This document shows, one piece after another, positions 1 through 41,517 of a DNA stretch of 64,000 nt. The translations under genes and the position numbers were made by a program. The notes beneath the pieces are model-generated. The model saw nothing but the letters and a program-made list of their open reading frames with translations, was not told the origin of the DNA and ran no database searches. Every line of letters starts with the position of its first letter. Position 1 is the stretch's first letter. The DNA comes from an uncultured Candidatus Binatia bacterium (GTDB lineage Bacteria; Desulfobacterota; Binatia; UBA9968; JAJDTQ01): assembly GCA_965215605.1 (NCBI GenBank), contig OZ244070.1, forward strand, positions 896,001 through 960,000, in the 5' to 3' direction.

Positions 1-227
1 GCGGCAACCCGGTAAATCTCCCTCTTTGTCATCAGCGCCCAGACGATCTGCGCCATTCGGTTGGCCAGCGGCACTGCGATCAGCATCCTCGGTTTGCACG
101 CCAGCATCCTGGCGAGCCAGGGATCGGTCGTCACCTCACGCCGAACCGCCCGCGGGCGGACGGTCACGGTGCCCGAAATCAACAGCCGTGTGAGGTGGCG
201 CTGGCCCATCTTCGATGTCTTGCCCAT
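1..227 (-). pseudogene. IS110-family transposase, C-terminal remnant (runs off window edge)
   Basis: Manual translation of minus strand: MGKTSKMGQRHLTRLLISG...DPWLARMLACKPRMLIAVPLANRMAQIVWALMTKREIYR, matching the typical IS110 C-terminus (SKMGxRxLRxLL...VALANKMARIxWAxM). The N-terminal DEDD part is missing. Confidence 0.75.
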
Positions 228-349
228 AACCAAGGCAAGTACTTCTGTGGAAGATCCATTTGTCGACGTTTGATGGCGGCCCCAACTGTCGGTTTGCCAG
301 CCACCCGTCCATGCGCGAAAGGGGTACAGAATCAGACATGACATGTTCG

Positions 350-3300
350 TTACTGGATCGTCGCGTCGGGGTCGCCGGCGCTCAAGGCGTTGGTCCAAGC
401 GAGGCCGAGTTCACAGGAGCGGTAGCGGCCCCAGGCCTTCCGCTCCTCGCGCTCAAGAATTGGGAAGGTCGAGTAGATGTAGCGGATATCATCGCGGTCG
501 GTCACACCGTAGAGGTGGAAATAGAGCGCATCCAGTTTGGCGCGGAGATAGAGGCGGCGGTCCTCGTCCCAGCGGAAGGGTGGCCGCACCTCGCCTGTCT
601 CGTCCACATAGCCCATGTCACGGGCGAAGAGAGCCATGTCATGTGCCGTATAGGTGAGCTCCAACACTGCCTCCCGCAGGATCTCCGCTGCTGTTTTCGG
701 TCCGAAGTGCGTAGCTTGGTAGTGCTCCAACGGTACGACTGGGAGTTGCTCGAGAATGAAGAGATTGAGCGTCTGACCCTGAACCTTTTGGCGTGTCACG
801 AAGTCGAAAACCACCGCGTTAAAATTGGCGGCCAGCAGCCATTCGCTCCGATCCGGCATTTCCGGTTCTAGGATAGGAACCTTGTTGCCGAATCCAACTG
901 CCGGAAAGAGCGCAGCTATGAATGTCCTTATGTTGGTCGCTGCGGTGATCTCCTTGAAGCCGAGAACCCAGCCCAACTGAGACGACCACCCGCATTTCGA
1001 CGCCGGCACCCAGTATTGCGGGTCAGGCAGCCAGTGCGGGTCCTTGTGCTGTTCGTTAGAGGCCGCCTCGGGCTGTGCGGGTCGGTGGCGATTCGTGGGT
1101 TTGACGATGACGCTGGCGGCGCGGTGGTCGAACGCCTGCACCATCTTGCCTTCGTAGAGCGGCACCCAATCGCCGCTTGGGCTGGCGTAGCGATTGCTGC
1201 CGATGGGCCATGCGCCTTCGTTTTCTTCAAGTTCAGTCCGCGTACGAAACAGGCCGGAGTCGTTGGTCATATGGAACACGGTCGTATATTTCACCGGCCA
1301 AGTCTTGATGGCCTCGTCCGAAGAGCGGTCTAACAGTATCGGCAAACGGTCGTAGATTGAGGTGGTAAGTTCCGCGGCGCGGCGAGAGCGGAAAATCGGG
1401 GCCGTGCCGGTGTTCGGGTTAAAGCGAGCAAAATCCTCCGCGCTCAACGGGAAGCAGCGATCCGGATCCCCGAGTTCCGACACACTCTGTAGGAAGAAGG
1501 CGCATTTCGCGTCGCCTGAGAGCGGCGAGGGGCTCGCCGAGAAGGTGCAGAATTTGAAGCTTCTGTGGACATCCGGGAAGAATGGCGACGCATCGTGCTG
1601 CGGGCGCCCGTTCTCGAAATCGTAGAGGGCTTTCAACCTGCCTTCGGTCGACACGCCCTTGAAGAACCGCGCTGCGGTCTTGTCCGACGCGATGCCGGAA
1701 GGGATGAGAAGGCCGACCATGCCGTCGCGTGTGACCAGCGTCATCGCGCGCTCGACGAACAGCGAGTAGAGGTTTATGTCGCCTTTGGACAACAGTGGAT
1801 AGTCGCCACCGTTGCGTGCGATGCGGAGCGCGGTGGTAGCTTGGTCATTGGCCCGTGCAAAGTCCTGCGCAAGTGGGTCATCCGCCCTCTCCAGATCAGT
1901 TATCATGCGCTTGCGGTCGGCTGCGCGTGGAGCCATGGCAATTTCCGGGCGGCGCGCGGCGAACCACTCGACCTGCTGCAACTTCATCCGGTCCCAGGGC
2001 GGGTTGCCGATCACGGCGTCGAACCCGCCCGTCAAACCGGGCGTTTCCCAGTCCGACCAGACACCGGGAAACGCCACCTGCCAGTTCAGGAAGCGTTCTT
2101 CGGCGATGAGTCGTTGAGCCTGCTCCAGCATCTCGGCGAAGCGCTCCGCTTCCGGAGCTTCTCTCCGAATTTCGATCTTGCCGAACGCAATATCGATGGG
2201 ATCGCCGAATCTCCCTTCGAGCCAACCGAAAAAGGGACCCTCGTCTTGCGGGCCACGAAGATCCATCCAGTCGAAGGCATGGAGTAGGGACAGAAACGCA
2301 TTCAGCGGTGCCGTCATCTCCGAGACCTCAGCAAACACGTCGGCGGACCGATGTGCCTCCGCAATTTCGGCATCTGTCAAAGCCTCTATGATCTGCATGG
2401 GCGACGCGGACCGTGTAGCTCGGTTCACAGGGCCTTGAAGGAAGAGTGATCCACCTCGGCGCGTCGCCCTTTCGATGGCGCCCAGCACCCAAGCGCCGAA
2501 CAGGCTGTCGCCGCAACGTAAGTGATGGTCCAGGAAGCTGAGCGGAGCTCCGACCGTGAAGGTGTGCAGCCACAGCGACACCTTCGCCAACTCCACAGCC
2601 ATCGGGTTTTTGTCCACGCCGTAGACACAGCGTTTAAGAACCATGCGGCGGACGATGTGTCGGTCGTCGAGTTGTGCAGGATCGAACGTCCAGCCGCGAT
2701 CCTCGGCATTGGCCATGATCGTGCTGCGGATACTGTCGATTCGCTTGTTCAGAGGCGAGATGTAGCCGTCGCACACGGCTTCCGATTCCGCCATCGCAGC
2801 GATGACCCGGTCAGCGAGATAGTCCACGAGGTTTACCAGAAAGTGTCCCGAACCCATCGACGGGTCGCAGACCTTAAGGTCGAGCAGCCTCTCCGCTGGA
2901 TCGAGCTTTTTCAATCGACGCTTCCGGCGGTCTTCGGGCAACTGACTCGATGCGAGTTGGGACGCTTCAGTGGCAAAGGCATCCGTACGTGCCTGTACAA
3001 GGGGTTCGACAGTCTCACCGATAATCAGGCCGACAAGGTCGTCGGGCGTGTAGTAGCTGCCGGAATCCTTCCGCGCGTAGACGTTCGGTCGAACGACGAT
3101 GTCATCGCCGTCGCGAACGATCTCCTGTTCCAGCAACCGCTCATAGATCGAACCCAATTGCTGAACGCCGAGGTCGCGGTAGTTGATATAGCGCCTGCCC
3201 TCCGGCGCTTGCTCGAACGAGAGCGCGTCGATCACGCCGGCCATTACCGCATCTCCCAGCCGGATGCGATCCAGAAGTGGCGTGCGGCGTCGGTCGAACA

Positions 3301-4423
3301 GTCCGCCATTGTAGGGTGGCAGGCCGATTGCAGCGTCACCTTGGTCAATGGCGCGACTCAGATTGTCGATCAATGACCAATATATTGAAGCGTTTTCGGA
3401 GAAGGCATCGCCCGCATCCTTGCGGTGTCCTACGTCGCCGCGAACCCTTTCCCGGAGCGCGTAGTCGTCGTACCGCGAATCGCGAACCGGCAGCAGGTCA
3501 CGGTCTTCAGCATAGAAGATGAACAGCAGGCGGTAGAGTAGAACCAACGCCGCTTCCCGCACCTCGGCCAACGGTACGTCCGGCGCGGCCCGCGCGACCG
3601 CACGGGCAAGATCCGGGAAGACCGTTTCAAAGACTAGTTCGGACAGGCTTGCAGCAACTCGTTCCCGGTAGAAGTGGCCCCTGTCGATAGCCTGCTCATG
3701 GAATGTTCGTTCGTCGACCGCGCCTGGCAGGAATGCTCTACACCGGAATATGAGGGCGAACACCTTGAGCCAATGGCGGCGCTCCTCCCCGTCCAGGGCG
3801 AACAGGCCGTCGTTGTGGCCGGGCAGGTTCAGAACGGCGGCTAGGTCGATTTCAAAAAACTGTTCCGAGACGGATAGGGCGCGCTGCCAATAGAGGCGCC
3901 ATTTTGCCCCGTTGGTTAGAATCCCCCAGCGGAGCCGTCCGGTTGTCAGATCATCGACCCGCCGCAAATAGCGCAGCATTTGCGTGGAGGGTGCTGTCTC
4001 CTCGCCGCGTCGTCCCGACCGCCGGTCGAGGGGACGTAGCCAGCGTTTCGATTCCACGATGGCGAGGCCATGTTGGTACCTTTTCCACTCCTCCGTGAAG
4101 CGGTTGGCCTGTTCCTTTGCTGCATTGTGCGCGAACAACAGTCCGTCGGGTACGGCCTCGCGACCGTGGGCTGAAAGGTTCTGCTGGCGCAAGTTCGCTG
4201 TCCACCCGAGCTGGCCGAAAACGGGCCAGATCAGATCGTCCTCCGTCTGACTCTCATTGGGTAATCGGTCAGCCGGGAAGCGGGCGAATATATCCCGCAA
4301 GGTGGACTCGACGCTGTGGAGCATCAATTCGTCGAAATCCTGCCAAGCGGGAAGATCGACGATGGACTCGCGAAGGAAATCCTCGGCAAAGAGGCTTCCC
4401 TGAAACGGCCTGCCACCGCTCAC
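350..4423 (-). CDS. Fused restriction endonuclease / N6-adenine DNA methyltransferase (type IIG, Eco57I/DrmMI-like)
   Basis: 1357 aa. N-terminal PD-(D/E)xK nuclease motif (VPDGLLF...IVESKR), GSYYTP, MTase motif I (CDPSMGSGHFL), motif IV (IGNPPW), C-terminal TRD-like region. GGAGG upstream of GTG. Confidence 0.88.
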   Translation of the reverse strand: MSGGRPFQGSLFAEDFLRESIVDLPAWQDFDELMLHSVESTLRDIFARFPADRLPNESQTEDDLIWPVFGQLGWTANLRQQNLSAHGREAVPDGLLFAHNAAKEQANRFTEEWKRYQHGLAIVESKRWLRPLDRRSGRRGEETAPSTQMLRYLRRVDDLTTGRLRWGILTNGAKWRLYWQRALSVSEQFFEIDLAAVLNLPGHNDGLFALDGEERRHWLKVFALIFRCRAFLPGAVDERTFHEQAIDRGHFYRERVAASLSELVFETVFPDLARAVARAAPDVPLAEVREAALVLLYRLLFIFYAEDRDLLPVRDSRYDDYALRERVRGDVGHRKDAGDAFSENASIYWSLIDNLSRAIDQGDAAIGLPPYNGGLFDRRRTPLLDRIRLGDAVMAGVIDALSFEQAPEGRRYINYRDLGVQQLGSIYERLLEQEIVRDGDDIVVRPNVYARKDSGSYYTPDDLVGLIIGETVEPLVQARTDAFATEASQLASSQLPEDRRKRRLKKLDPAERLLDLKVCDPSMGSGHFLVNLVDYLADRVIAAMAESEAVCDGYISPLNKRIDSIRSTIMANAEDRGWTFDPAQLDDRHIVRRMVLKRCVYGVDKNPMAVELAKVSLWLHTFTVGAPLSFLDHHLRCGDSLFGAWVLGAIERATRRGGSLFLQGPVNRATRSASPMQIIEALTDAEIAEAHRSADVFAEVSEMTAPLNAFLSLLHAFDWMDLRGPQDEGPFFGWLEGRFGDPIDIAFGKIEIRREAPEAERFAEMLEQAQRLIAEERFLNWQVAFPGVWSDWETPGLTGGFDAVIGNPPWDRMKLQQVEWFAARRPEIAMAPRAADRKRMITDLERADDPLAQDFARANDQATTALRIARNGGDYPLLSKGDINLYSLFVERAMTLVTRDGMVGLLIPSGIASDKTAARFFKGVSTEGRLKALYDFENGRPQHDASPFFPDVHRSFKFCTFSASPSPLSGDAKCAFFLQSVSELGDPDRCFPLSAEDFARFNPNTGTAPIFRSRRAAELTTSIYDRLPILLDRSSDEAIKTWPVKYTTVFHMTNDSGLFRTRTELEENEGAWPIGSNRYASPSGDWVPLYEGKMVQAFDHRAASVIVKPTNRHRPAQPEAASNEQHKDPHWLPDPQYWVPASKCGWSSQLGWVLGFKEITAATNIRTFIAALFPAVGFGNKVPILEPEMPDRSEWLLAANFNAVVFDFVTRQKVQGQTLNLFILEQLPVVPLEHYQATHFGPKTAAEILREAVLELTYTAHDMALFARDMGYVDETGEVRPPFRWDEDRRLYLRAKLDALYFHLYGVTDRDDIRYIYSTFPILEREERKAWGRYRSCELGLAWTNALSAGDPDATIQ

Positions 4424-4535
4424 CGTTCAGCCTCCCAGACCCTTTCGGATACCTTGCGGGCAGTCTCTAGACAGGATCGTTTCATACGAAATACCGGTCG
4501 GTTTCGGCCGAGCGGAGTCCCTGCTCGTTCTCTGG

Positions 4536-4853
4536 TCATGCAATCCCCGGGGCGGCGCTCTTTCCGAAGACACCCGGCCTGGTCGGCAGATGGCGGATCT
4601 GGGCGCCCGTTTCCCTGTCCGCCTGAACCAGATCGTACTGTGCCTGAAGGTTAAGCCAGAACTGAGGCTCGACACCGAACCAGTGGCCCAAGCGTAGCGC
4701 GGTGTCGCCGGTGACCGAACGCTTGCCGGCGATGATCTGGCTCACCCGGTTGGCGGGCACCTCGATCTGCCGCGCCAACTCCGTCGGTGTGACACCCAGT
4801 TCTTCCAACTCGCCCTTCAGGACCTCACCGGGATGGACAGCTCTCATGAACAT
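4536..4853 (-). CDS. higA: HigA-family antitoxin (HTH)
   Basis: VHPGEVLKGEL...LARQIEVPANRVSQIIAGKRSVTGDTALRLGHWFG..PQFWLNLQAQYDL signature. ATG at 4853 with AGGAGG RBS. Confidence 0.9.
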   Translation of the reverse strand: MFMRAVHPGEVLKGELEELGVTPTELARQIEVPANRVSQIIAGKRSVTGDTALRLGHWFGVEPQFWLNLQAQYDLVQADRETGAQIRHLPTRPGVFGKSAAPGIA

Positions 4854-4869
4854 ACCGTCCTCCTCCTTC

Positions 4870-5157
4870 TCATCCGTGGTAGTCGACGATCTCAACATTG
4901 TCCGGTCCTGCATGCCCGTCCGGCCACTCAAAACACAGTCTCCATTGCCGATTAATGCGAATGGAGTACTGGCCTTTCCTGTCACCCCGGAGGGCCTCGA
5001 GGTGGTTTCCCGGCAAGGACCGCAGGGTATCGAGCGAAGGCGCGGCGTTCAGAACGGCGAGCCGTCTTGCTGCTTGGTCTTCGAAGCTCCGGAACGCCCT
5101 GACTGCCCGCCCTTCGGCAAACGCTCGTGCCTTTCTGTCTCGATAGCCGAGGATCAT
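4870..5157 (-). CDS. higB: HigB (RelE/ParE-superfamily) mRNA interferase toxin
   Basis: PGNHLEALRGDRKGQYSIRINRQWRLCFEW...VEIVDYH signature. Lies directly upstream of higA. Confidence 0.92.
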   Translation of the reverse strand: MILGYRDRKARAFAEGRAVRAFRSFEDQAARRLAVLNAAPSLDTLRSLPGNHLEALRGDRKGQYSIRINRQWRLCFEWPDGHAGPDNVEIVDYHG

Positions 5158-5161
5158 CTCC

Positions 5162-5194
5162 TGTCAAGATGACAAGCTAGACGATGTACGTCAA
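5162..5194 (-). promoter_or_regulatory. Putative higBA promoter with overlapping palindrome
   Basis: Minus strand TTGACG-17 nt-CATCTT. Inverted repeat TGTCA-AGA-TGACA (5162-5174) covers the -10. Confidence 0.5.
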
Positions 5195-5216
5195 GAGTAC
5201 ACTACCTATCGCCAGC

Positions 5217-6098
5217 CTATCTGCGGCGACTTTTTGACGGCCACGGAAGTGTGCCGTCAAGTTCCTTGAGCAAAGATTCATTGTCTTCGTCCTCGTCCCA
5301 ACGCTCGCAGGTTGGCTTCCTGCTCTCGTCAAACCAGATGAGTGATAGACATTGATTCCATTCCTGCAGCACGATGGCTTCTTCTGAGACCAGCTGCCGG
5401 TTCTGGAATCCCTCGCCGAACCATACATCCGTTGAGATCTCGTCGTGGTCCTCGATCTTCGCACCACCGCGCATCAGGCGATGGGCGACGCTGCCTTCCG
5501 GCACAGGGATGTTGAATTCAATCCAGCCCTTCAACTCACGCAGGTATTTCGACCGGGACACATAGCGGATCCACCCGTCCTCGCTTAGAACAAACGCGCA
5601 GGGCTCGATTGTATTCGCGGCGAATCGAGAACCCGTTGTGGTCAATGACGCTTTGTACTCCGCCGCCAAGGACTTGACCGCATCCAGGGAAATGTTCGTG
5701 TCGGCGACTTCCTTGGCGAAGGAATCGTAGGGGAGCAAACACTCGGCGGCGAATACATCGCAAAGGATCTCTTCCTCGGGTCGCTGTCGATAGCGCAGAA
5801 GCACGTCGGTCTTTAACGTCGTGCCGTGATGCTGCGATGGCAGTCCCATCACGATGTGGGCGATCTCGTGGAGGACGGTGAAGCGCTGCCGCTCCTCCCG
5901 GTGATTGCCGTTGACGATGATGAGGTGTTTGCCCTTCAACCGGGCCGTCTGGCCGGATTCGTCCTCCGCTAGATTGTAGACGATCTTGATCTTCGCGTCT
6001 GCGGCGGTGGCTAGATGCTTGATGTCGACGGGGACCGCTTCGTTACCGGCAACCCCGATGAACTGGCGAGCCTTGAGAATCGTTTGGAACTCGTCCAT
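5217..6098 (-). CDS. capP: ImmA/IrrE-family Zn metallopeptidase, CapP-like
   Basis: 293 aa. RQRFTVLHEIAH (HExxH) and EEEILCDVFAAECLLP motifs. Adjacent to an HTH gene and divergent from CBASS. Confidence 0.8.
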   Translation of the reverse strand: MDEFQTILKARQFIGVAGNEAVPVDIKHLATAADAKIKIVYNLAEDESGQTARLKGKHLIIVNGNHREERQRFTVLHEIAHIVMGLPSQHHGTTLKTDVLLRYRQRPEEEILCDVFAAECLLPYDSFAKEVADTNISLDAVKSLAAEYKASLTTTGSRFAANTIEPCAFVLSEDGWIRYVSRSKYLRELKGWIEFNIPVPEGSVAHRLMRGGAKIEDHDEISTDVWFGEGFQNRQLVSEEAIVLQEWNQCLSLIWFDESRKPTCERWDEDEDNESLLKELDGTLPWPSKSRRR

Positions 6099-6482
6099 TC
6101 AGTCCTCGTCTTCATCGAAAAAGGTGGCCAAGCGGTCCACGTGTTGGCGCCACTCGTCGGCGGTTTCTGGGCGCTTTCCCCTGAAACTCATTTGATGAGC
6201 AGGCTCAAGCAAGTCGAGCGGCCGATCCTCGTCTTCGACGAACACTTCGATGAGGGTGCGGTTGACATCCTTTCCGACCAGCCGGCGCAAGAGTTGCGCC
6301 GTCCGCGGACTCAGCTTCAAGGTACGGACGAACGCGTCGACCACCTGCTCGGAGGGTGCCGTCTTCTCCTCCCTTTCAAGCCGGTGAATGTACGCGTGGT
6401 CGATGCCGCACAGCTTGCCGAACTCCCGTAGGCTCAGGTTGCGGGCTTCCCGGAATTTTTTCAGCGTGTAGCCGAACGACAT
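6099..6482 (-). CDS. capH: XRE-family HTH transcriptional regulator, CapH-like
   Basis: MSFGYTLKKFREARNLSLREFGKLCGIDHAYIHRLEREEKTAPS HTH. C-terminal MSFRG motif. Stop abuts the peptidase start. Confidence 0.78.
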   Translation of the reverse strand: MSFGYTLKKFREARNLSLREFGKLCGIDHAYIHRLEREEKTAPSEQVVDAFVRTLKLSPRTAQLLRRLVGKDVNRTLIEVFVEDEDRPLDLLEPAHQMSFRGKRPETADEWRQHVDRLATFFDEDED

Positions 6483-6492
6483 CGCTCCACCC

Positions 6493-6535
6493 TTGACACA
6501 CAGGTTTACTCTGGTATGTTGTCCATATAGACAAC
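6493..6535 (+). promoter_or_regulatory. Putative CBASS operon promoter and palindromic operator
   Basis: TTGACA (6493-6498), 16-nt spacer, TGn-TATGTT (6515-6520). Inverted repeat GTTGTC-CATATA-GACAAC (6518-6535) overlaps the -10/+1. Confidence 0.55.
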
Positions 6536-6690
6536 GAAGTAGATAAAACCTAGAATCTAACCTAGTTTTTGGCACCGTAGAATGCTGGGCCCCGTCGTCT
6601 GCACGGACTACAGGATAGCCAATTGTGGCATTCGTGACAAGGACTGGCCAACGGAACGCGGGTGTCGATAGCGAAGGCCCCTGATCTGAC

Positions 6691-7686
6691 ATGACGACCA
6701 CAGAACTACAGCCGCCCCAACGCCGCGTCCTGTCCATCGACGGGGGCGGGATATTGGGGACGTTTCCTGCCGCTTTCCTCGCGGGGCTCGAACAGCACCT
6801 GCCGAAGCCGATAGGCAGCTATTTCGATCTGATCGCGGGGACGTCTACCGGCGGCATCATCGCGATAGGGCTCGCGATGGGGCTCCGCGCGTCCGAACTG
6901 CTAGATCTCTACGAGCAGCGCGGCCTGGAGATCTTCGGCCAGGGCCGCGGACCGTTTGCCGATTTCATCCTCGGCAAGCTGCGCCTCGGGCGGTGGCTGA
7001 TCATGAACAAATACGACGCCAAGCCCCTCCAAACCGTTCTCGAAGAAGTCCTCGGCGATCGGCGAATCGGTGATGCCAAGACGCGCCTCCTCGTTCCCGC
7101 CTGGAACCCTGTGGCGCGCTCCGTCTACATCTACAAGACCGCGCACCACCCGCGCCTTCGCAACGACTACAAGTGCCTGGCGGTCGACGCCGCTATGGCC
7201 ACGGCTGCCGCACCCACCTACTTCCGCCAACACGTGACGGAGGATGCGGCCGGCCTGACCGATGGCGGCACTTGGGCGAATAACCCTACGACACTGGCAG
7301 TCGTCGAAGCGATTGCGGTGCTGGGCTGGCCGCGCGACTCGCTGCACGTTCTCAGCCTTGGCTGCCTCGACGAGACCTACAGCGTTCGCAAGTGGGCAGG
7401 TATAGGCACGTTGGGTTCCAAGATCATCAAGCTCTTCATGGACGGTCAGTCCCACGGCGCGATGGGCGTCGCGAAACTGCTTACCGGCCACGAGCATGAG
7501 CGGGAGGCAATCCACCGGATCAACCACACCGTTCCGTTGAATGCCTTCAAAATGGACGACGCCCGCGTCATCCAGGATCTCAAGGGGCTTGGCCACTCTT
7601 TCGCGCGTGATCGCCACCCGGTCCTTGAAACCGTTTTCTTTAACGCTCCGGCGGATACCTTCTTCCCGATTTATCCGCTCGAGTAG
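6691..7686 (+). CDS. capV: CBASS patatin-like phospholipase effector (CapV-like)
   Basis: DGGGILG, GTSTG (catalytic Ser), AAPTYF, DGG (catalytic Asp). Immediately upstream of a CD-NTase. Confidence 0.88.
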   Translation: MTTTELQPPQRRVLSIDGGGILGTFPAAFLAGLEQHLPKPIGSYFDLIAGTSTGGIIAIGLAMGLRASELLDLYEQRGLEIFGQGRGPFADFILGKLRLGRWLIMNKYDAKPLQTVLEEVLGDRRIGDAKTRLLVPAWNPVARSVYIYKTAHHPRLRNDYKCLAVDAAMATAAAPTYFRQHVTEDAAGLTDGGTWANNPTTLAVVEAIAVLGWPRDSLHVLSLGCLDETYSVRKWAGIGTLGSKIIKLFMDGQSHGAMGVAKLLTGHEHEREAIHRINHTVPLNAFKMDDARVIQDLKGLGHSFARDRHPVLETVFFNAPADTFFPIYPLE

Positions 7687-7717
7687 TCGGTTCTTGAAAG
7701 CAGAGGAGGTTAAAGCC

Positions 7718-8920
7718 ATGTCCGTTGATTTCAGCAAATTTAACGAGTTCCTCGAGCTCGTCGGCAGCGAGATCGACATACCGCCGAGCAAGTATCAGGA
7801 CGCTGTTAACCGCTACCACGCGGTGGGGCACTGGCTTGAGGATGGCGACTACGTCGGATGCCAGGGCCAACTGGTCATCTCCCCCCAAGGGTCGTTCCAG
7901 CTTGGGACAGTCGTCAGGCCCATCCGCCACGGCATCGAGGCAAGCTACGACATCGATCTGGTGTGTGAGATGCCGCTTCGCAAGGACTTGACTACTCCGC
8001 GAGCGGTCAAGCAGATCGTGGGCGACCGGCTCCGGCAACACGAAACCTACCGCCGGCTTCTCGATCCCGAAGGCCGACGCTGCTGGACCCTCGAATATGC
8101 CGAACAGGACGGAGTGGGGTTCCATCTCGACGTCTTGCCCGCTGTTCCTGACAACAACGGGCTCCAGAGTACAGCCATTGCAATCACGCACAAAAACGAC
8201 GCCGTGTACTCGTGGTCGGCGAGCGACCCGCGCGGGTACGGGACGTGGTTCGACGGCAAGAACGCTGCAGCATTTGCGCGTGTCGTCGTCGAACAGAAGC
8301 GGTTCATCCAGCGCCAGGCATTCCTCATCTATGCGCGCGTCGACGACGTCCCGGATCAACTGGTCCGGACGCCGCTGCAGCGCTCGGTCCAACTCATGAA
8401 GCGGAATCGCGACCTGCACTTCAATGATCCCGGGAAGATTGACCACGCCCCTATCTCGGTCATCATCACGACCCTTGCCGCGCACCTTTACCAAGGCGAA
8501 CCGGACACGTACTCTGCTTTAGCCGGTATTGTTGGCAGACTCCAGGGACATGCGGGGCTCGTGGAGGGCGGGACAATTGACCCGTCTCTGGCGACGATGG
8601 GCCTCATCCGGCGGCTCCGGGACGGCACGTGGTATATTGGCAACCCGGTCAATCCGGCCGAGAACTTCGCCGACCGATGGCATGAGGACGGTCACGCACG
8701 CGCACGGGCGTTCTTCTCTTGGGTGACCGGTCTGCAAAAGGACCTGCTGAATCTTCAGACCGACACCAACCCACGTCTGCTCAAGGAGAATCTGACCGGG
8801 GTGTTGGGGACCGCGGCGGTAGCCAAGCATTTTGGCGTTCTCGTTCCATCAGCCGATGCCGTGGAGCCGCGCCCGCGAATCCATATCAACAGGCCCGCGA
8901 AGCCGTGGCGACGCGGGTGA
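7718..8920 (+). CDS. cGAS/DncV-like nucleotidyltransferase (CD-NTase)
   Basis: QGSFQLGTVVRP...YDIDLVC, FHLDVLP, RTPLQRSVQLMKRNRD, NPVNPAENFADRW. Ends KPWRRG. ATG at 7718 after GAGGAGG. Confidence 0.9.
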   Translation: MSVDFSKFNEFLELVGSEIDIPPSKYQDAVNRYHAVGHWLEDGDYVGCQGQLVISPQGSFQLGTVVRPIRHGIEASYDIDLVCEMPLRKDLTTPRAVKQIVGDRLRQHETYRRLLDPEGRRCWTLEYAEQDGVGFHLDVLPAVPDNNGLQSTAIAITHKNDAVYSWSASDPRGYGTWFDGKNAAAFARVVVEQKRFIQRQAFLIYARVDDVPDQLVRTPLQRSVQLMKRNRDLHFNDPGKIDHAPISVIITTLAAHLYQGEPDTYSALAGIVGRLQGHAGLVEGGTIDPSLATMGLIRRLRDGTWYIGNPVNPAENFADRWHEDGHARARAFFSWVTGLQKDLLNLQTDTNPRLLKENLTGVLGTAAVAKHFGVLVPSADAVEPRPRIHINRPAKPWRRG

Positions 8921-9648
8921 CAGAGGACTTGCGGAAGCAAATCGCCGAGCTAAGTGGCGTTCACAAGAGACTGACGGACGTCGTCGAGCACGACGCCGAA
9001 ATCCTCTTGTCCGGCACGTTGGATTTCGAGGCGTCCGCCGATGGGCTGGAAACCATCACGGCGTCGTTCGCCGTTGAACTGAGCATCCCGCACGTGTTCC
9101 CTGACCGATTACCGTGGGCGAAGGAGATCGGTGGCCGGATTGGGACCGATTACGAACATCTCAATTCAGATGGCACGCTGTGCCTCGCTGTCCCGGTTGA
9201 GCAGCGACGCGTGTTTTTTGAGCAGCCCACTCTGCTCGGATTTGTAGACCGGCTACTAGTCCCCTATCTGTATGGGTACTGTTTCTGGAGGAAGCACGGT
9301 TATCACCCGTTCGACGAAGCGGCGCACGGAAATGAGGGGATCCTGCGCTACTATGTCGATACCCTCGGCTTGCGAGATCCCCTCAAGGTGCTGGCCTTCA
9401 TCTGTTTCCTCTTCGAGCATGGATACCGCGGGCACCACGACTGTCCCTGTGGGAGCGGTCGCAAAGTTCGGGCGTGCCACGGACCAGTGTTGCACGCTCT
9501 CCACAAGCATCATACGCGGGAGACGGTCCGCGGCGATTTCTTGGCAATCCTTGGTATCTGTTTCGCCCGATTCGAAAAAGGCCAGCTCTCCTTTTCGGGT
9601 CCACTGCGAAATCAACTGATCCGGCTACTGAAAAGGTTTAAGGACTGA
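8917..9648 (+). CDS. Prokaryotic E2 (ubiquitin-conjugating-like) protein with C-terminal SEC-C motif
   Basis: FPDRLP and HLNSDGTLCL (E2-type HxN...GxLC, Cys at 9181-9183). CPCGSGRKVRACH SEC-C motif. GTGA start/stop overlap with the CD-NTase. Confidence 0.8.
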   Translation: MTEDLRKQIAELSGVHKRLTDVVEHDAEILLSGTLDFEASADGLETITASFAVELSIPHVFPDRLPWAKEIGGRIGTDYEHLNSDGTLCLAVPVEQRRVFFEQPTLLGFVDRLLVPYLYGYCFWRKHGYHPFDEAAHGNEGILRYYVDTLGLRDPLKVLAFICFLFEHGYRGHHDCPCGSGRKVRACHGPVLHALHKHHTRETVRGDFLAILGICFARFEKGQLSFSGPLRNQLIRLLKRFKD

Positions 9649-10870
9649 AGGTCGCTTCCCTGGCCGGGGCTTGGTCCTCGTCGCCAATCGGGTATCCTTT
9701 CAGGATGTCGGCGGCGATGCTGTCGGACACGCGGGTGGCGGACTCGCGCACCGACTCCCGCGCCAGATGCGCGTACCGCGCGGTGGTCTCCACCTTGGTG
9801 TGACCCAGGAGCTTCCCGATCATGGTCAGCCCTTCGCCGAGCGCCAGCGCCCTGGACGCGAACGAGTGGCGGCAGTCGTGGAGCCGCACGTCCTCCAACT
9901 CCGCGCGCTTGCGGATCCGGTCCCAGGGGTCGTTCAGGTTGCGCAGGTGCGTGCCCGCCTTCTTCCCGGGGATCACGTGCGGGTTCCCCTCCACGCGCGG
10001 GATGCCGGCGAGCACCCGGGCCGCCTCCGGCGAGAGCGGCGCCACGCGCGCTCCGGTCTTGGAGTCCTCGAGCTTGATCTCGCGCGCATCGAGGTTCACG
10101 TCCCGCCAGCGGAGCGCCAGGACCTCGTTCCGCCTCAACCCCGTGAGCAGCAGCAGCCGGATCGCCGCCACCGCGTGCACCGACATTCCATTCCCGTTCT
10201 CCGCCTCCGCCAGCGCCCGGCCCAGCCGGCGGAACTCCTCCTCGCTCAGGAACCGCTCGCGCCCGCGCTCGCGGTTCTTCACCACCACCCGGCACGGGTT
10301 GCTCGCCTCCGGCAACTCCCCCCGGTCCTCCGCCGAGCTCCAGATGCGCGACAGCGCCTCCACAGTCCGGTTCGCCATCGACGGCGTCCCGCGCATCGAG
10401 TGGTGCAGTTCGGTTACCCGCTTGTGATCCACCGCCAGCGCCGGGACTCTGCCGAGTGCTGGCAGCAGGTGCTTGCGGACGATCAGCGTGTACATCTCCA
10501 CCGTCCTTGGCTTGCACCGCACGGCCACGTGCTCCTCGAGCCACCGGCGCGCAAGCTCCCCCACCGTGGGACCCTCGACCAGCGCCGCAGCGGGTTCCGC
10601 CAGCGGCTCCTCTCCCGCCTTGATGCGCGCGATGATCAGCGCCGCCCGCCTGCGCGCCTCCTCCGCCGTCACGATCCCGTGCCGGCCCACCGTCACCCGC
10701 TTCGCCGCCTTGCCGTTGGCCCGGGTCTGCACCACGTAGTACTTGCTCCCCGACGGATAGGCGCGAACCCCGAAGCCCGAAAGCTCCGAGTCCCAATAGA
10801 CCGTGTCCCTCTCCACTGCCAGCGCTTCCACCGTGCGCTTCGAAATCGTCGCCGTGGTGAGCTTCGCCAT
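9638..10870 (-). CDS. Tyrosine recombinase/integrase with N-terminal arm-DNA-binding domain
   Basis: YWDSELSGFGVR arm domain. Catalytic TGLRRNE, KTG, HDCRH, LLGH, TARY all present. Confidence 0.93.
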   Translation of the reverse strand: MAKLTTATISKRTVEALAVERDTVYWDSELSGFGVRAYPSGSKYYVVQTRANGKAAKRVTVGRHGIVTAEEARRRAALIIARIKAGEEPLAEPAAALVEGPTVGELARRWLEEHVAVRCKPRTVEMYTLIVRKHLLPALGRVPALAVDHKRVTELHHSMRGTPSMANRTVEALSRIWSSAEDRGELPEASNPCRVVVKNRERGRERFLSEEEFRRLGRALAEAENGNGMSVHAVAAIRLLLLTGLRRNEVLALRWRDVNLDAREIKLEDSKTGARVAPLSPEAARVLAGIPRVEGNPHVIPGKKAGTHLRNLNDPWDRIRKRAELEDVRLHDCRHSFASRALALGEGLTMIGKLLGHTKVETTARYAHLARESVRESATRVSDSIAADILKGYPIGDEDQAPAREATFSP

Positions 10871-10891
10871 TCGAGGATGCCTCCCTCCGGC

Positions 10892-12073
10892 TCAGACCGC
10901 GCCCGGCGGCAGGACGTCCGCCGCGATGCTGCCCCCGACCCGGGCGGCCGAAGCCTTCTCCGTGTCCCGCGCCAGATGCGCATAGCGCGCCGTGGTCGCC
11001 ACCTTCGCGTGACCCAGCAGCGCGCCGATCATCGAAAGCCCCTCGCCCAGCGCCAGCGCCCGCGAGGCGTACGAATGACGGCAGTCGTGTAGCCGCACGT
11101 CGCCGAGCCCCGCCCGCCTGCGGAGCCTCATCCAGACGGCATCGAGGTTCGTGAGACGAGTTCCGGGCTTCCGCCCCGCGATCACCCACGGATTGTCCTT
11201 CGTCCGCGGTATCCCCGCGAGCACCGCCTCCACCGCCGGCGTGAGCGGCACGCTGCGCCATCCCGTCTTGCCGTCCCTCAGCCGAAGCTCCCCCGCCGTG
11301 TGGTCCACGTCGTCCCACCTGAGCGTCAGGATCTCGTTCCGGCGGCAGCCCGTGAGCAGCAGCAGACGGAGCGCGGGGATCGCCGGAGGGAACACCGTGC
11401 CGTCGGCTTCCGCCTCGTCGAGCACCCGCCCCAACTCGCGGTACTCCTCGGGCGTCAGGAACCGCTCGCGGCGCGTCTCCCTGTAGCGGCGCACAGACCG
11501 GCACGGATTGCGCCGCGGCGGCGTCATCCCCCAGGCCTCCGCCAGTCGGAACATGTGCGCCAGGACCCCCACCGCCGCGTTCGCCTGGTAGGGCTTCCCC
11601 CGGAGCTTGTGATGGAACTCCGAGACTTGCGGGCGATCCACCTTCGAGAGCTGCAGATGGCCCAGCTCCGGCACGATGTACAGGCGCAGGATACGCCCAA
11701 AGGCCTCCACCGTCGCGGGCCGGCAGTTCACCCGCACATGGGCCTCTATGTAGCGCTCGGCGAGATCCGCCACCGTGGGCCCGGGCGCCGCGGGCGGAGG
11801 GGCGGGCTCCAGCCCCTGCTTGATGCGGTCGATGGCGAGCGCCGCCTTGCGGCGGGCGTCCTCGGGTGTCAGCCTGCCGTAGCGGCCGAGCGCGAAGCGC
11901 TTCGGCCCCCCGGCCGGTCCCCGGGTCTGCACGCACCAGACCTTGCGGCCCGAGGCATACACCCGAATGCCGAACCCCGGCAGGTCTCGGTCCCAGACCA
12001 CGGTGTCGCCGGACTCGACGGAGAGCGCATCGACGGTGCGCTTGGTAAGCTTGATGGGTTGGCGCGTGGGCAT
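10892..12073 (-). CDS. Tyrosine recombinase/integrase, paralog of the adjacent integrase
   Basis: VWDRDLPGFGIR, TGCRRNE, KTG, HDCRH, LLGH, TARY. ATG at 12073 with GGAGG RBS. Confidence 0.92.
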   Translation of the reverse strand: MPTRQPIKLTKRTVDALSVESGDTVVWDRDLPGFGIRVYASGRKVWCVQTRGPAGGPKRFALGRYGRLTPEDARRKAALAIDRIKQGLEPAPPPAAPGPTVADLAERYIEAHVRVNCRPATVEAFGRILRLYIVPELGHLQLSKVDRPQVSEFHHKLRGKPYQANAAVGVLAHMFRLAEAWGMTPPRRNPCRSVRRYRETRRERFLTPEEYRELGRVLDEAEADGTVFPPAIPALRLLLLTGCRRNEILTLRWDDVDHTAGELRLRDGKTGWRSVPLTPAVEAVLAGIPRTKDNPWVIAGRKPGTRLTNLDAVWMRLRRRAGLGDVRLHDCRHSYASRALALGEGLSMIGALLGHAKVATTARYAHLARDTEKASAARVGGSIAADVLPPGAV

Positions 12074-12325
12074 GGGGCGATTTCCTCCGACCTCGGAATC
12101 GGAGAAAATGCTATCAGGACCGTAATCGAAACGCAACCCAGTGAAATCGTATCCTGGTGTTTTCGAGGTCAACGGCTGGCGCCGGTTGACGGAATAGCGC
12201 AGGGAGGCGAGCCTTTCGGGATCGTCAGTAAGCTATTGTAATACAGACGATTATTGCAGTCCTGTCGTGTCAGGACTTGACATGACAGCGCTTGTCCGCT
12301 ACCCGAGAAACATTGAGAAAACCGG

Positions 12326-12463
12326 TGATATATATGGGTCTTTTTTGCCGTCGGCTGCGTTGCTCTTCCTCGCGTGGTAACCGCCACTGCTCGTCATCGC
12401 GCCTTGCCGACAACAAAAAATCCTCCGCATCTCATCATGCGAACTAACCGGACAGGACACTAG
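12326..12463. repeat. Palindromic MITE-like element, truncated on island side
   Basis: Inner inverted repeat TTTTTTGCCGTCGGC (12341-12355) / GCCGACAACAAAAAA (12406-12420). Outer arm GAACTAACCGGACAGGACACTAG ends in CTAG. Arm recurs at 41471 and 54544. Confidence 0.65.
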
Positions 12464-13203
12464 CGCGAGGGGAACACGACGGCGCGCTGCGGCTCGCCCA
12501 GCAGGCGGATGAATCCCCCGAAGGCCGTCTCGCTCAGTTGTTGGAGCCGCGGGATGTTCACCGGCGTTTCCCGCCGGATGCGTTCCGCGGTGATGCGTGG
12601 TCGAAGGTTCCTGAGCTCGGCCTTGTGCACCGGCACGTTGAGCCAGCGCTCGATCAACGGAACGTCCACCTCCAGGTGGAACTGGAAGCCGTAGACGCGG
12701 TCGCCGAAGCGGAAGGCCTGATTCCGGCAGTCGGGCGAGGTCGCCAGCAGGACCGCCTTCCTCGGCAGGTGGAACGTGTCCGCGTGCCACTGGAAGAGTG
12801 TTTCGGTTTCCCTGAAACCGGCGAACAGCGGGTCCCGCCTGCCCTCCTCCGTGATCGAAACGCCGTACCAGCCGATCTCGGGAACCTTGTTGGGTTTCAC
12901 CCTGGCCCCGAGCGCCTTGGCGACGAGCTGCGCGCCGAGACAGATTCCCAGCACCGGAAGATCCTTGTCGAGGGCCCTCCGGATCAGCGACACCTCCGTG
13001 GCCAAATGCCCGTGCTCGACCTCGTAGGCGCTCATGGGACCGCCGAGCATCACCAAGCCGCTGTAGCCGTCGAGCCCGGGGCTGGCGTCGGGATGACGTC
13101 CGAAGTTCACGTAGCGCATCCGGAAGCCCGCTTCCCGGAGCATCGGGTTCAGCGTTCCCAGTATCTCGAACGGTACGTGCTGGCAGACGAGCAGCTTCTT
13201 CAT
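12460..13203 (-). CDS. Class I glutamine amidotransferase (GMP synthase-like domain)
   Basis: LGGPMS, PVLGICLGAQL (Cys nucleophile), FQFHLE (His-Glu). Confidence 0.9.
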   Translation of the reverse strand: MKKLLVCQHVPFEILGTLNPMLREAGFRMRYVNFGRHPDASPGLDGYSGLVMLGGPMSAYEVEHGHLATEVSLIRRALDKDLPVLGICLGAQLVAKALGARVKPNKVPEIGWYGVSITEEGRRDPLFAGFRETETLFQWHADTFHLPRKAVLLATSPDCRNQAFRFGDRVYGFQFHLEVDVPLIERWLNVPVHKAELRNLRPRITAERIRRETPVNIPRLQQLSETAFGGFIRLLGEPQRAVVFPSR

Positions 13204-13299
13204 GGATGAAGGACGGGCTCCCGCGGGACTTCAACGAGAAACTAACAGAAATCCCCACGGACGGCGACGGAGGTCCGGCCGTCCGGGCGATCCGCCGTG

Positions 13300-14169
13300 C
13301 TACCAGTGCCGCCCGAGGGTCACGAAGATGGCACCCGACACCACCAGCAGCGTGCCGAAGACCACCGCCGGGGTCGTGTTCTCGATGCGGCGCAGAATGA
13401 TGCTGGCCATCAGCACGGTCCATACCGGCGACGTGGCGGTGATGGGAGAGACGACCACGGTCGGCCCCGACGCCAGGGCGAAGAACAGCAGCAGGATCGC
13501 CATGGTCTCGCCGACACCGGAGATGGCGAAAGGGAGCAACGCCTTCCGGTGCCACACGATGGGATCCCGAGGCAGCGGCAGCGACAGGTAGGTCATGAAG
13601 CAGCCCAGCGAGACGATCCCTACCAGCGCCGCGAAGAACAGCGGCTCGTCGGCCAGGAGCATGGCGTATCGACGGATAGGGTGCACGGTGGAGGTCATCA
13701 CGGAGGTCGCCACCGGCAGCACTAGGTACCAGCGACGAAAGTCGGGGATCTGCTCGTCCATTCTCCACGAGGTGAGAGCGGTGCCGCCCACGATCAGCAG
13801 CACCCCCGCCAGATTGAGGGCATTGGTCTGCTCTCCCAGCACGGTGACGCCGATCAGCACGGTGAGCATGGGGTGCGTATTGCGCAGGGTGACGGCCCGG
13901 GATACACCCACCTTGGAGATGGCCAGATAGTGGCACGACCGCAGCACCGTCTGCAGCACGCCGGTGATGACCACCAGATAGAGCGCCGTGCGGGGAACCG
14001 AGGGGGCCCCCTCGGTGAAGAGGACCACGGACGACAGCCCCACCGCGTGCACGGTCAGCGAGAACAGCACGGCGGTGTTGGGGGTCGAGTACCGCAGTCC
14101 CCACCGAGCCGCGATGTTCGACGTGGCGTAGGAGAACGCGGTAAGGAGGGCGAGCAGTTCGAAGGACAT
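13300..14169 (-). CDS. DMT/EamA family transporter
   Basis: About 10 hydrophobic helices in two repeats, with LGE and SPVWTVL motifs. Start trimmed to MSFELL. Confidence 0.85.
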   Translation of the reverse strand: MSFELLALLTAFSYATSNIAARWGLRYSTPNTAVLFSLTVHAVGLSSVVLFTEGAPSVPRTALYLVVITGVLQTVLRSCHYLAISKVGVSRAVTLRNTHPMLTVLIGVTVLGEQTNALNLAGVLLIVGGTALTSWRMDEQIPDFRRWYLVLPVATSVMTSTVHPIRRYAMLLADEPLFFAALVGIVSLGCFMTYLSLPLPRDPIVWHRKALLPFAISGVGETMAILLLFFALASGPTVVVSPITATSPVWTVLMASIILRRIENTTPAVVFGTLLVVSGAIFVTLGRHW

Positions 14170-14313
14170 CTCTTCCCCGGGAAAGCGGACGGGCACGGAG
14201 GGCCGGCATCCCCGTGGCGGTGCCGGAATCATGCCGATGTTCCACGGCGTATCCCGGATCAGGAGAAAATGCGAACGCCGGATCGAAGGCAGCAACGCCG
14301 CAAAGGCAGCTCC

Positions 14314-14901
14314 ATGAAGAAGTTCAGGTTCGACCGCGCGTACTACGACCGGTGGTACAGGGACGACGAGACGCGGACTCTCATGACGGAATACACCCCC
14401 GTCATCGTCCGCTTCGTGCTCGCCTACCTCGACTACCTGGAGGTGGAGGTGAAGACGGTGTTGGACGCCGGCTGCGGCCTCGGGCACTGGCGGACCGCGC
14501 TGAAGGATCTCCGCCGGGACATCGAATACCACGGGTTGGAGACGAGCGAGTATCTCTGCGAAGAGTATTCATGGGAGAAGGGCTCCATCGTCGACTACAA
14601 GTCCGCGGAGTCGTTCGATCTGGTGGTGTGCCAGGGCGTGCTCCAGTACCTGAGCGATGCGGAGTGCAAGGCCGCCATCGACAACATCGCCGAGCTGTGC
14701 TCGCAAGCCCTCTACCTCGAAGTGCTCACCCGCCGCGACGCCAGGGAAAACACGATCCCCGAGCGCACCGACGCCGACGTCTACCTGCGCAAGGGAAAAT
14801 GGTACCGCAAGCGCCTCGAGAAACACTTCCTGAATCTGGGCGGCGGACTCTTCCTGTCCAGCAACTGCGCGGCGACCTGCTATGAGCTGTGGACCCCGTA
14901 G
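14314..14901 (+). CDS. Class I SAM-dependent methyltransferase
   Basis: VLDAGCGLG motif I and FDLVVCQGVLQYL. Confidence 0.85.
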   Translation: MKKFRFDRAYYDRWYRDDETRTLMTEYTPVIVRFVLAYLDYLEVEVKTVLDAGCGLGHWRTALKDLRRDIEYHGLETSEYLCEEYSWEKGSIVDYKSAESFDLVVCQGVLQYLSDAECKAAIDNIAELCSQALYLEVLTRRDARENTIPERTDADVYLRKGKWYRKRLEKHFLNLGGGLFLSSNCAATCYELWTP

Positions 14902-14916
14902 CACCCGGAAGACCCG

Positions 14917-14961
14917 CTTGCCATGGCCGGCGTGTTGACACGGCACGCCGGTCATGGCAAG
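14917..14961. repeat. 18-bp inverted repeat (terminator or operator)
   Basis: CTTGCCATGGCCGGCGTG / CACGCCGGTCATGGCAAG, one mismatch, 9-nt loop. Confidence 0.6.
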
Positions 14962-15021
14962 TCAGCACTTCAAATTCCAGGCATTTAAAGACCTTCCTGA
15001 ACGAGAAGCCATGAGGAACAA

Positions 15022-16557
15022 ATGTGGGAAGCTTCCATAGCGGCGGCGGAGAAGCTCTTTTCGCTCGGGCCGATGCTGGTCATCCTGCTGATGCTGCCCA
15101 TCGCGCTCGTGTCGGGCCTGATGCCCGGGGGGAACCTGCCCGTCGCCGTGGTGCTGCTGGGGTTCGCCGGGTACGTGGACCCGTGGATCACGGTGACCGC
15201 GGTGGTGTTCTTCCTGGCGGCCAGCGACATCACCGAGCCGGTCCCCTCAATTCTGATGGGCATTCCCGGCGCCCGTTCGGCCCAGGCGACGATCCTCGAC
15301 GGCTACCCGCTGGCCCGCAAGGGACTGGCGGGCGTGGCGCTTGGCGCCAGCTACATGTGCACCCTGGTGGGCGGCATTATCGGCGCGTTGGCGCTCTTGC
15401 TGGCGCTGCCCATCTCCCGTGAGCTGCTGAGGCTGTTCGGCGCCGCCGAATTCTTCCTGCTGTCACTGCTGGGCCTCATGTGCGTGGCCATCGTCAGCTC
15501 GGGCGCCTTCGTCAAGGGCATGCTGACGGCCTGCTTCGGGCTTGCCATCTCCATGATCGGCTTCTCCGTCATCGGCGGCAACACCCGCACCACCTTCGGC
15601 ATCGACTACCTCTGGGACGGCATCCCCCTGGCCCCGGTGGTCATCGGCCTGTTCGCCCTGCCCGAGGTGGTGGACCTGGTGGTGTCCAACACGCCCATCG
15701 CCCGCGAACGCCTGGAGACCATGCTGAAGGAGGCGGACAAGGACGTCTACAAGGGCATGAAGGAAGCCCTCAACAACAAGTGGCTGCTGGTGCGCTCGTC
15801 GCTCATCGGCACCTTCGTGGGGATGATGCCGGGCATCGGCTCCTCCGGCGCTCACTGGATCGCCTACGCCCAGGCCCGCCATACCGAGAAGGGCGCCATG
15901 GAAACCTTCGGCACGGGCGACGTGCGCGGCGTCATCGCCGCGGACTCGGCCAACAACTCGGTGGACGGTGGCGTGCTGATTCCCACGGTGGTGTTCGGGA
16001 TACCGGGCAGCGGCGGCATGGCCATCCTGCTGGCGATCCTGGTGCTGTCGGGGGTCCAGCCGGGTCCGGCGATGCTGACCGAGAACCTCGACCTGACCAT
16101 CAGCCTGGTCTACACCATCGTTCTGGGCAACGTCATCGTCGTGCCCATCATGCTTTATTTCGCGCCCACCCTGACCCGCGTCGCGGCCATCTCTCCCAAC
16201 ATTCTCGCGCCCATCATCATCGGCTTGGTGACCCTGGCCGCCTTCCAGGCCACCTATTCCATGGAGGACCTCGGCCTGGTGCTGGCCTTCGGCGTGCTGG
16301 GCCTGTTCATGAAGCGCTACGGCTGGCCGCGCCCGCCGATCCTCATCGCGGTGGTGCTGGCGGACATCGTGGAGAAGTACCTGTGGCTCTCGGCCAACAC
16401 CTACGGCTGGTCCATGTTCGCCCGTCCGCAGTTCCTGTCCATCGTCGTGGTGATGGTCCTGGTGATGGTGGTGAGCCTGCGCATGCAACAGGGGGCCAAG
16501 AGAGCGGCGCAAGAGTCCACGGGCGAAGGCCAGGCACCCGGACTGGATGACGACTGA
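15022..16557 (+). CDS. tctA: Tripartite tricarboxylate transporter permease TctA
   Basis: ILMGIPG...ATILDGYPLARKG, GVIAADSANNS, GIPGS, GWPRPP motifs. Confidence 0.9.
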   Translation: MWEASIAAAEKLFSLGPMLVILLMLPIALVSGLMPGGNLPVAVVLLGFAGYVDPWITVTAVVFFLAASDITEPVPSILMGIPGARSAQATILDGYPLARKGLAGVALGASYMCTLVGGIIGALALLLALPISRELLRLFGAAEFFLLSLLGLMCVAIVSSGAFVKGMLTACFGLAISMIGFSVIGGNTRTTFGIDYLWDGIPLAPVVIGLFALPEVVDLVVSNTPIARERLETMLKEADKDVYKGMKEALNNKWLLVRSSLIGTFVGMMPGIGSSGAHWIAYAQARHTEKGAMETFGTGDVRGVIAADSANNSVDGGVLIPTVVFGIPGSGGMAILLAILVLSGVQPGPAMLTENLDLTISLVYTIVLGNVIVVPIMLYFAPTLTRVAAISPNILAPIIIGLVTLAAFQATYSMEDLGLVLAFGVLGLFMKRYGWPRPPILIAVVLADIVEKYLWLSANTYGWSMFARPQFLSIVVVMVLVMVVSLRMQQGAKRAAQESTGEGQAPGLDDD

Positions 16558-17102: not shown

Positions 17103-17111
17103 CCGGAAATG

Positions 17112-17145
17112 AAACGGCCATCCGCCGAGTGGCGGATGGCCGTTT
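17112..17145. terminator. Bidirectional intrinsic terminator
   Basis: Perfect 15-bp stem AAACGGCCATCCGCC-GAGT-GGCGGATGGCCGTTT between convergent genes. Confidence 0.8.
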
Positions 17146-41470: not shown

Positions 41471-41517
41471 GTGTCGTGTCCGGCAAATTCCTGTGATAAG
41501 TTGCGCAGGATTTTTTT
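41471..41517 (+). repeat. Degenerate arm of the MITE-like repeat
   Basis: GTGTCGTGTCCGGCAAATTCCTGTGATAAGTTGCGCAGGATTTTTT aligns without gaps to the reverse complement of about 12415-12460. Confidence 0.65.

Follow-up and report, generated by a model that had tools for sequence, protein, structure and literature searches.

The window, by which we mean the whole 64-kb stretch of DNA that was analyzed (G+C content, 65.6%), contains a genomic island that abuts a truncated copy of a dispersed, palindromic, MITE-like repeat; this copy overlaps the stop codon of a gene for a class I glutamine amidotransferase (GATase). The reading that we favor, with a probability of about 0.45, is that the island integrated site-specifically into this repeat copy, between its center and its right arm, and that the copies of the repeat serve as multiple landing sites. 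The element in the window belongs to a dispersed family of imperfect palindromes of about 165 nt, and this family is undescribed in Rfam. Site-specific islands usually depend on a single conserved gene or a handful of them, for example, tRNA genes, which limits where defense cargo can land and eases the detection of the islands. If the integrase pair of this island docks in a dispersed repeat, many equivalent sites would exist in each genome and several islands could reside in one cell; the spread of a MITE would be coupled to the later gain of defense systems, and such islands would escape island finders based on tRNA genes. The features discussed below are listed in Table 1.

Table 1. Features of the island, the repeat, and the flanking gene in the 64-kb window
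Feature	Position	Strand	Remarks
Island cargo	1..9648		Continues past the left window edge
DrmMI/type IIG-like methylase	350-4423		1357 aa, RM/DISARM-like
CapP	5217-6098		M78 peptidase
CapH	6099-6737		Regulator
Patatin phospholipase	6691-7686		Effector
CD-NTase	7541-8920		
E2-like protein	8719-9648		Strand opposite to the integrases
Int2	9638..10870	-	Tyrosine integrase paralogous to Int1, with the same three domains (Pfam)
Int1	10892..12073	-	P4-type tyrosine integrase; Arm-DNA-bind_3, SAM-like, and catalytic domains (Pfam)
Integrase-proximal flank	12074..12325	-	Two palindromes
Break zone	12326..12337		AT-rich TGATATATATGG; homology to complete copies stops; candidate crossover/junction, placed to the zone and not to the exact base
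Dispersed imperfect-palindrome repeat, truncated copy	12338..12463	-	Left arm and conserved center, no right arm; from translation P0286 and L004 DNA homology
Inner inverted repeat	12341-12355 / 12406-12420		15 nt, 13/15 complementary, 50 nt between the arms
Terminator-like hairpin within the repeat	12424..12443	-	7 pairs, then a T-run; 1 site versus 0.4 expected in shuffles
Left (outer) arm of the repeat	12431..12463	-	Terminal CTAG gives the GATase stop
GATase, class I glutamine amidotransferase	12460..13203	-	Last syntenic chromosomal gene before the island
Second, partial repeat copy	41471..41516	+	Left arm to T-run only, no integrase nearby; nhmmer E 0.04, tblastn E 7e-6

A dispersed repeat on the GATase stop codon

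The GATase gene ends in TAG (minus-strand positions 12462-12460), and this stop codon lies within a CTAG at 12460-12463. Along the minus strand there then come a 30-nt arm that starts in this CTAG, a terminator-like hairpin with its T-run, an inner inverted repeat, and an AT-rich stretch (12326-12336), from which about 250 nt lead to the ATG of int1 at 12073. The TAG in the window comes from the terminal CTAG of the repeat, and all four of the closest relatives have TGA at this place (10742-10744). The first-pass annotation had described a hairpin element that begins at the CTAG of the GATase stop, with an outer arm and a 15-bp inner repeat, and such an element is present, although two of the 15 inner positions do not pair. 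The 30-nt outer arm as quoted there has a single exact match in the window (12463 to 12434, minus strand), and no further match that could represent a partner arm was found at up to three mismatches on either strand of the whole 64 kb, a threshold that also missed the 78%-identical copy at 41471, later recovered by nhmmer and tblastn. That the outer arm is a true arm follows from complete copies elsewhere, which have both arms; the window alone could not show it.

The inner inverted repeat encloses the part of the repeat center that is best conserved among the database copies and the L004 copy described below. Of 300 dinucleotide shuffles of the segment 12074-12463, 12 contained an equally good inverted repeat, and by itself it is thus only mildly unusual. 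The terminator-like hairpin, which does not appear in the earlier description, is composed of part of the outer arm and the next 13 nt and, as a prediction, likely ends GATase transcription. Within 12074-12420, the best inverted match to the arm is an 8-mer, and with strict gap costs 288 of 1000 shuffles score as well; when the gap costs are relaxed, a weak stretch that resembles the arm emerges at 12258-12285 (46 of 1000 shuffles; p ~0.05). A diverged partner arm at 12255-12290 was rejected as not significant on these two counts. The RNA fold of the truncated copy is no better than that of its shuffles (z = -0.13). Small ORFs across the junction gave no NCBIfam match, and one of them, of 72 aa, is without a homologue; small ORFs over the window copy were accordingly dropped as candidate genes.

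The element was translated on the minus strand (55 codons; P0286) and compared with 1.84 billion representative proteins, which gave 40 matches at an E value of ≤1e-3, of which 7 were at ≤1e-10. One of the 40, a tryptophan-rich repeat protein (P0287), is regarded as a spurious match. The 39 genuine matches share one conserved stretch, located close to the C terminus of ORFs that are otherwise unrelated and range from 53 to 549 residues in length. The core motif was located in 38 of the 40 proteins, and 28 of these 38 ORFs end exactly 23 residues past it. Seven of the 25 repeat-bearing ORFs that were scanned have an upstream Pfam domain (E ≤ 0.01, some below the curated cut-off), each from another family: HAD, DctM, the C-terminal region of DNA ligase (DNA_ligase_A_C), SLT/PG-binding, hydantoinase A (Hydantoinase_A), DUF2321, and PMT_2. 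In three ORFs (DctM, Hydantoinase_A, and DNA_ligase_A_C), the Pfam match runs to the end of the profile just ahead of the repeat. Unrelated ORF tails and Pfam domains that end at the repeat indicate gene calls that read through a repeat on or beside natural stop codons, as at GATase. Thus, the position of the repeat on stop codons produces read-through “proteins” in metagenome gene calls, and the 39 clusters are an annotation artifact.

Complete copies comprise 54 codons and a stop, about 165 nt. A comparison of the first eleven codons of the element with the last ten codons plus the stop showed that the two arms are readable as codon-level reverse complements in 25 of 28 complete copies (30 to 32 of 33 bases, a level reached by 0 or 1 of 200 shuffles); the other three are not scorable, as the ORF starts inside the element or is without an in-frame left arm. 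The right arm terminates in an in-frame TAG in 25 of the 28. At least six variants of the arms exist, in which both sides differ together, while the center is conserved, and many database copies contain an extra insertion in the center. With regard to a target-site duplication such as TA, the ends of the copies correspond at the peptide level to CTAG...CTAG (beginning with L-V and ending with H-stop). Among the three copies available as DNA, the ends are CTAG at 12460 and CCGG at 41467 in the window and CAAG...CTGG in L004.

The L004 copy is complete and diverged; it spans about 180 nt (approximately 11432-11616 of that locus) and abuts the start codon of a bicupin gene. Its arms pair, the score of the left arm against the reverse-complemented right arm being reached by none of 1000 shuffles, and it folds with z = -4.8. 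Its center contains a nested perfect hairpin, rich in G+C, that constitutes a dispersed repeat of its own; this hairpin recurs at 6088-6224 of L004, and in many database copies it forms the extra insertion.

The window itself holds two copies of the repeat, both partial and 29 kb apart. The second is identical to 12460→12415 at 36 of 46 positions, a match that is the best tile in the window and was reached by none of 2000 shuffles. A 1001-aa ORF lies on one side of it and an ORF that starts at 41530 on the other, and its T-run leads straight into the ribosome-binding site of the latter. A stringent DNA search of the window and 80 loci (1.29 Mb) revealed no second copy, and a plasmid collection gave neither a DNA match nor a translated match to the repeat. 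The elements are shorter than about 300 nt and without coding capacity of their own, have terminal inverted repeats, and occur as many dispersed copies in unrelated contexts, as is typical of MITEs; no transposase was found by Pfam among the 19 gene products of 1-20,622. The presence of the repeat at unrelated loci and its absence from the orthologous sites in the three relatives L001 to L003 indicate mobility. The description of the window element as one copy of a dispersed palindromic MITE-like repeat, made originally from the window alone, is therefore borne out by the 39 ORF-embedded copies, the complete L004 copy, and the partial copy 29 kb away. No Rfam 15 family matched the window at the gathering score, and at E ≤ 10 only chance-level matches were obtained for 12100-12600 and for the complete L004 copy.

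The island and its tandem integrases

A genome scan with the GATase protein identified 80 loci, the closest of which (L001 to L004; 82 to 86% protein identity) all come from Binatia-type MAGs. These four are syntenic with 12463-23200 of the window, and the shared gene order is lost precisely at the GATase stop. There, all four have a convergent bicupin gene, which terminates 25 to 30 nt past that stop and is followed by a dehydrogenase gene; neither gene is found in 1-12460 of the window, and the island cargo has no counterpart downstream of GATase in these relatives. By this comparison of gene order, the island is inserted at GATase relative to the four related genomes, in agreement with the first-pass annotation, which had also noted that a tRNA or another usual attB is missing here: ARAGORN detected no tRNA or tmRNA gene in the 64-kb window. 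Because the cargo extends off the left window edge, the island measures at least 12.3 kb.

Local alignments gave no remnant of the 3′ end of the relatives' bicupin gene beside GATase that scores better than shuffles (41 to 150 of 300), and a MAFFT alignment was uninformative. Since intergenic DNA cannot be aligned with relatives at 82 to 86% protein identity, comparison with empty sites does not fix the boundary within 12074-12337.

The cargo has a G+C content of 0.57 to 0.62, lower than that of the window. Its genes from 350 to 9648 constitute a defense set, with the methylase, an HTH protein, CapP/CapH, and a CBASS operon (patatin, CD-NTase, and E2-like protein).

Two tyrosine integrase genes lie between the cargo and the repeat. 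Int1 and Int2, which form a conserved pair, are 56% identical, the Int2 gene begins 21 bp after the Int1 stop, and the catalytic residues R..HxxR..H..Y are kept in both according to their alignment. The same order, an Int1-type followed by an Int2-type protein, is seen in five read-through fusions (P0013, P0029, P0030, P0036, and P0037; 50 to 66% identity). Overlapping but unrelated integrase pairs also exist on two alphaproteobacterial plasmids (L083 4935-7300 and L084 4830-7465) and are only 36 to 39% identical to the Int1/Int2 type.

Integrases that are 90 to 95% identical to Int1 or Int2 occur two or more per genome and at other sites, a multicopy status that rests on contigs of equal size in base pairs and not on coordinates. 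A 3,959,972-bp contig has the GATase of the window, Int1, and Int2, and a second Int1 gene (P0001; 95% identical) is on a contig of equal size. One Int1-type (P0004) and two Int2-type (P0260 and P0261) genes, all of at least 90% identity, are assigned to the 5,108,957-bp contig of L003, two Int1-type genes to a 5,335,205-bp contig, and two Int2-type genes to a 4,774,547-bp contig. The GATase site of L003 is empty, with no integrase within 10 kb of the gene. A single-copy attB at the GATase 3′ end is unlikely, given this empty site and the presence of near-identical integrases in two or more places per genome. The GATase 3′ end as a unique attB is accordingly disfavored, given that none of the 80 GATase loci has a related integrase and that the L003 integrases are located elsewhere.

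Most Int2 homologues of at least 90% identity share a common tail and stop, and several carry other tails. The window Int2 has three extra codons, which run into the antisense of the E2 gene (9646-9652). The TGA stop of the E2 gene (9646-9648) adjoins the last canonical Int2 codon and thereby marks a sharp boundary between integrase module and cargo. A 2.8-kb integrase-only element bounded at 9650 was considered and rejected, as 9560-9720 and 12074-12500 have no 8-mer in common; 9650 may still be a module boundary.

The junction between repeat and island

The copy at GATase agrees with the complete copies from its first codon as far as 12338, beyond which the similarity is lost, as seen both in the peptide alignment and in the DNA alignment with L004. 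Where the complete copies continue into the right arm and its stop, the window copy runs on into integrase-flank DNA. The statements that the symmetry ends at TGAT 12326 and that the partner arm is missing where the integrase-flank DNA begins thus find their counterpart in the comparison with complete copies, from which the window copy departs between 12337 and 12326. An identical junction is spanned by a read-through protein from another assembly (P0285; 4423-bp contig). In P0285 the GATase stop is lost by a frameshift, and the translation crosses the same repeat copy into the island flank. The junction is hence shared by another assembly, and P0285 also illustrates the artificial extension of proteins in gene calls. 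The AT-rich break sequence is absent from the complete copies, and no dyad of core-type sites was found around the break. No repeat of 12075-12470 was detected within 1-12074 of the window. The island-side flank does not follow the repeat in any of the 39 database copies, and none of the 10 repeat-bearing contigs looked up corresponds in size to a listed integrase contig.

According to the reading that we favor, a noncoding imperfect palindrome of about 165 nt, belonging to the MITE-like family, would have been sitting directly on the GATase stop codon when the integrase pair brought about recombination between an attP on the circularized island and a short core within the repeat. The island would have been joined to the repeat between the conserved center and the right arm, at 12326-12337, so that only the left arm and the center stayed beside int1, and the missing right arm should lie at the far end of the island. 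Each genomic copy of the repeat that keeps the core would be a potential landing site. We infer that the truncation of the copy at GATase was caused by integration and that the repeat is the specific attB. The proposal of the first-pass annotation that such an attB offers many landing sites per genome is plausible but unproven; it agrees with the multicopy integrases and the empty GATase site of L003, an agreement that is consistent but indirect.

There are other explanations for the junction. One is coincidence: a decayed copy of the repeat may by chance be the neighbor of an island that actually attaches at another sequence, for example, in the short spacer between GATase and the bicupin gene, or the arm may have been lost in an unrelated deletion or rearrangement. 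We consider this unlikely. It is true that the truncated copy at 41471-41516 has no integrase, so that truncation alone is no proof of integration and decay can shorten copies, that the island boundary is not pinned within 12074-12337 by empty sites, and that none of the 39 database copies is occupied. However, the repeat breaks off just where the DNA that leads into int1 begins, the odds are low that a junction would fall by chance into a repeat covering a small fraction of the genome, and the distribution of near-identical integrases, with the GATase site of L003 empty, speaks against a unique attB. Another explanation turns the relationship around, in that the repeat would be the island's own end and the ~165-nt copies would be miniature, nonautonomous deletion derivatives moved in trans by the integrases. 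A full-length tandem-integrase element would then be bounded by both arms, and 12326-12337 would be the deletion breakpoint of the miniatures and not an att crossover. The position of the arm at the extreme end of the nonsyntenic DNA, abutting the GATase stop, would fit, as would the fact that integrases and repeats are both multicopy and the recurrence of the arm motif GTCCTGTC in the int1-proximal palindrome, at 12259-12277. A conserved center with covarying arms is, moreover, the reverse of what is usual for MITE ends bound by a transposase, and it would suit conserved arm-type sites for Arm-DNA-bind_3 combined with core-type sites that vary with the integrase. Nevertheless, we regard this explanation as distinctly unlikely. 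No repeated arm-type motif is common to the center and 12074-12336, and the repeat-bearing contigs looked up do not correspond to integrase contigs. Movement by tyrosine recombinases is conservative, CTAG ends and a position on stop codons fit TA-targeting MITEs of the DDE type, and we know of no bacterial MITE family that is moved by tyrosine recombinases.

A further alternative, about what the repeat itself is, would agree with integration into it, with the repeat being the end of the island, and with coincidence alike: the repeat might primarily be a module, either structured RNA or terminator, that is under selection at the ends of genes, and not a mobile MITE. The compensatory changes in the arms around a conserved center, the terminator-like hairpin with its T-run, the position on stop codons, and the stable predicted fold of the L004 copy are what such a module would display. 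Against it, neither the truncated nor the complete copy corresponds to an Rfam family, the truncated copy folds like its shuffles, and the occupation of unrelated loci, with the orthologous sites in L001 to L003 being without the repeat, implies mobility. This alternative is, in our estimation, very improbable. It is also conceivable, although somewhat unlikely, that the P4-type integrase pair and the ~165-nt palindrome are one system, in which islands dock into any copy or the palindromes are moved by the pair. In the former case, a genome colonized by the repeat would offer many sockets for exchangeable defense cargo, and in the latter, a bacterial MITE family would be mobilized by tyrosine recombinases.

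Known elements and the integrase-proximal flank

The window repeat resembles the imperfect palindromes of the ERIC type. It is also similar to the Correia elements of Neisseria and comparable MITEs, which are likewise noncoding, 100 to 200 nt long, bounded by terminal inverted repeats, intergenic beside gene ends, and found in variants with internal insertions. In contrast to Correia elements, the center is the best-conserved part of the repeat described here, the arms vary by compensatory changes, and no cognate transposase turned up among the 19 gene products scanned.

In the literature on paired or tandem P4-type integrases and on repeat-targeting integrases, we found no direct precedent except the filamentous prophage Nf of Neisseria with its dRS3 repeats, which is not proof of absence. 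The recombinase of Nf is not known to be a P4-type tyrosine integrase. Nf (the MDA island) integrates into dRS3 repeats, of which hundreds are possible sites, and thus is likewise a mobile element with a multicopy intergenic repeat as its chromosomal target (PMC3898611). The dRS3 repeat is 20 bp long (PMC3898611). The repeat at GATase is about 165 nt long, and its role as a target is deduced from a single junction.

The island resembles P4-type (Arm-DNA-bind_3) islands, which are found at tRNA or tmRNA genes or at gene 3′ ends, in the architecture and catalytic residues of its integrases, in its cargo of defense genes, and in the location of int directly downstream of the flanking gene on the same strand. 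P4-type islands at tRNA or tmRNA genes differ from it in their site, since no such gene is present here and the junction is in a dispersed repeat; unlike them, it also has two co-oriented paralogous integrases 21 bp apart, of which near-identical copies occur several per genome. GInt (ginABCD) and RIT elements likewise have tyrosine recombinase genes side by side at an island end, but three of them, accompanied by GinD in GInts, and GInts often insert at gene ends (PMC5385486, PMC3414803). The pair in the window consists of two P4-type paralogues with no third recombinase, whereas the GInt and RIT recombinases belong to other subfamilies. GInt, RIT, and BIM elements were therefore rejected as models for the island, in which the next gene after the integrases is that of the CBASS E2-like protein, on the other strand.

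Of approximately 19 palindromes of this kind in the 64 kb, two fall within the 390 bp of 12074-12463. One, a 27-bp near-perfect palindrome (12262-12288; 11-nt arms, 5-nt spacer), lies 190 nt ahead of int1, overlaps another hairpin of 7 bp, and has an 8-mer in common with the repeat arm. It may serve as an operator or as a site bound by a recombinase. The other, with 11-nt arms (12080-12109), spans GGAGGA, the ribosome-binding site just before the int1 ATG, and as a hairpin it may mask int1 translation. The region upstream of int1 is conserved to at least 12208 in an N-terminally extended homologue (P0244).
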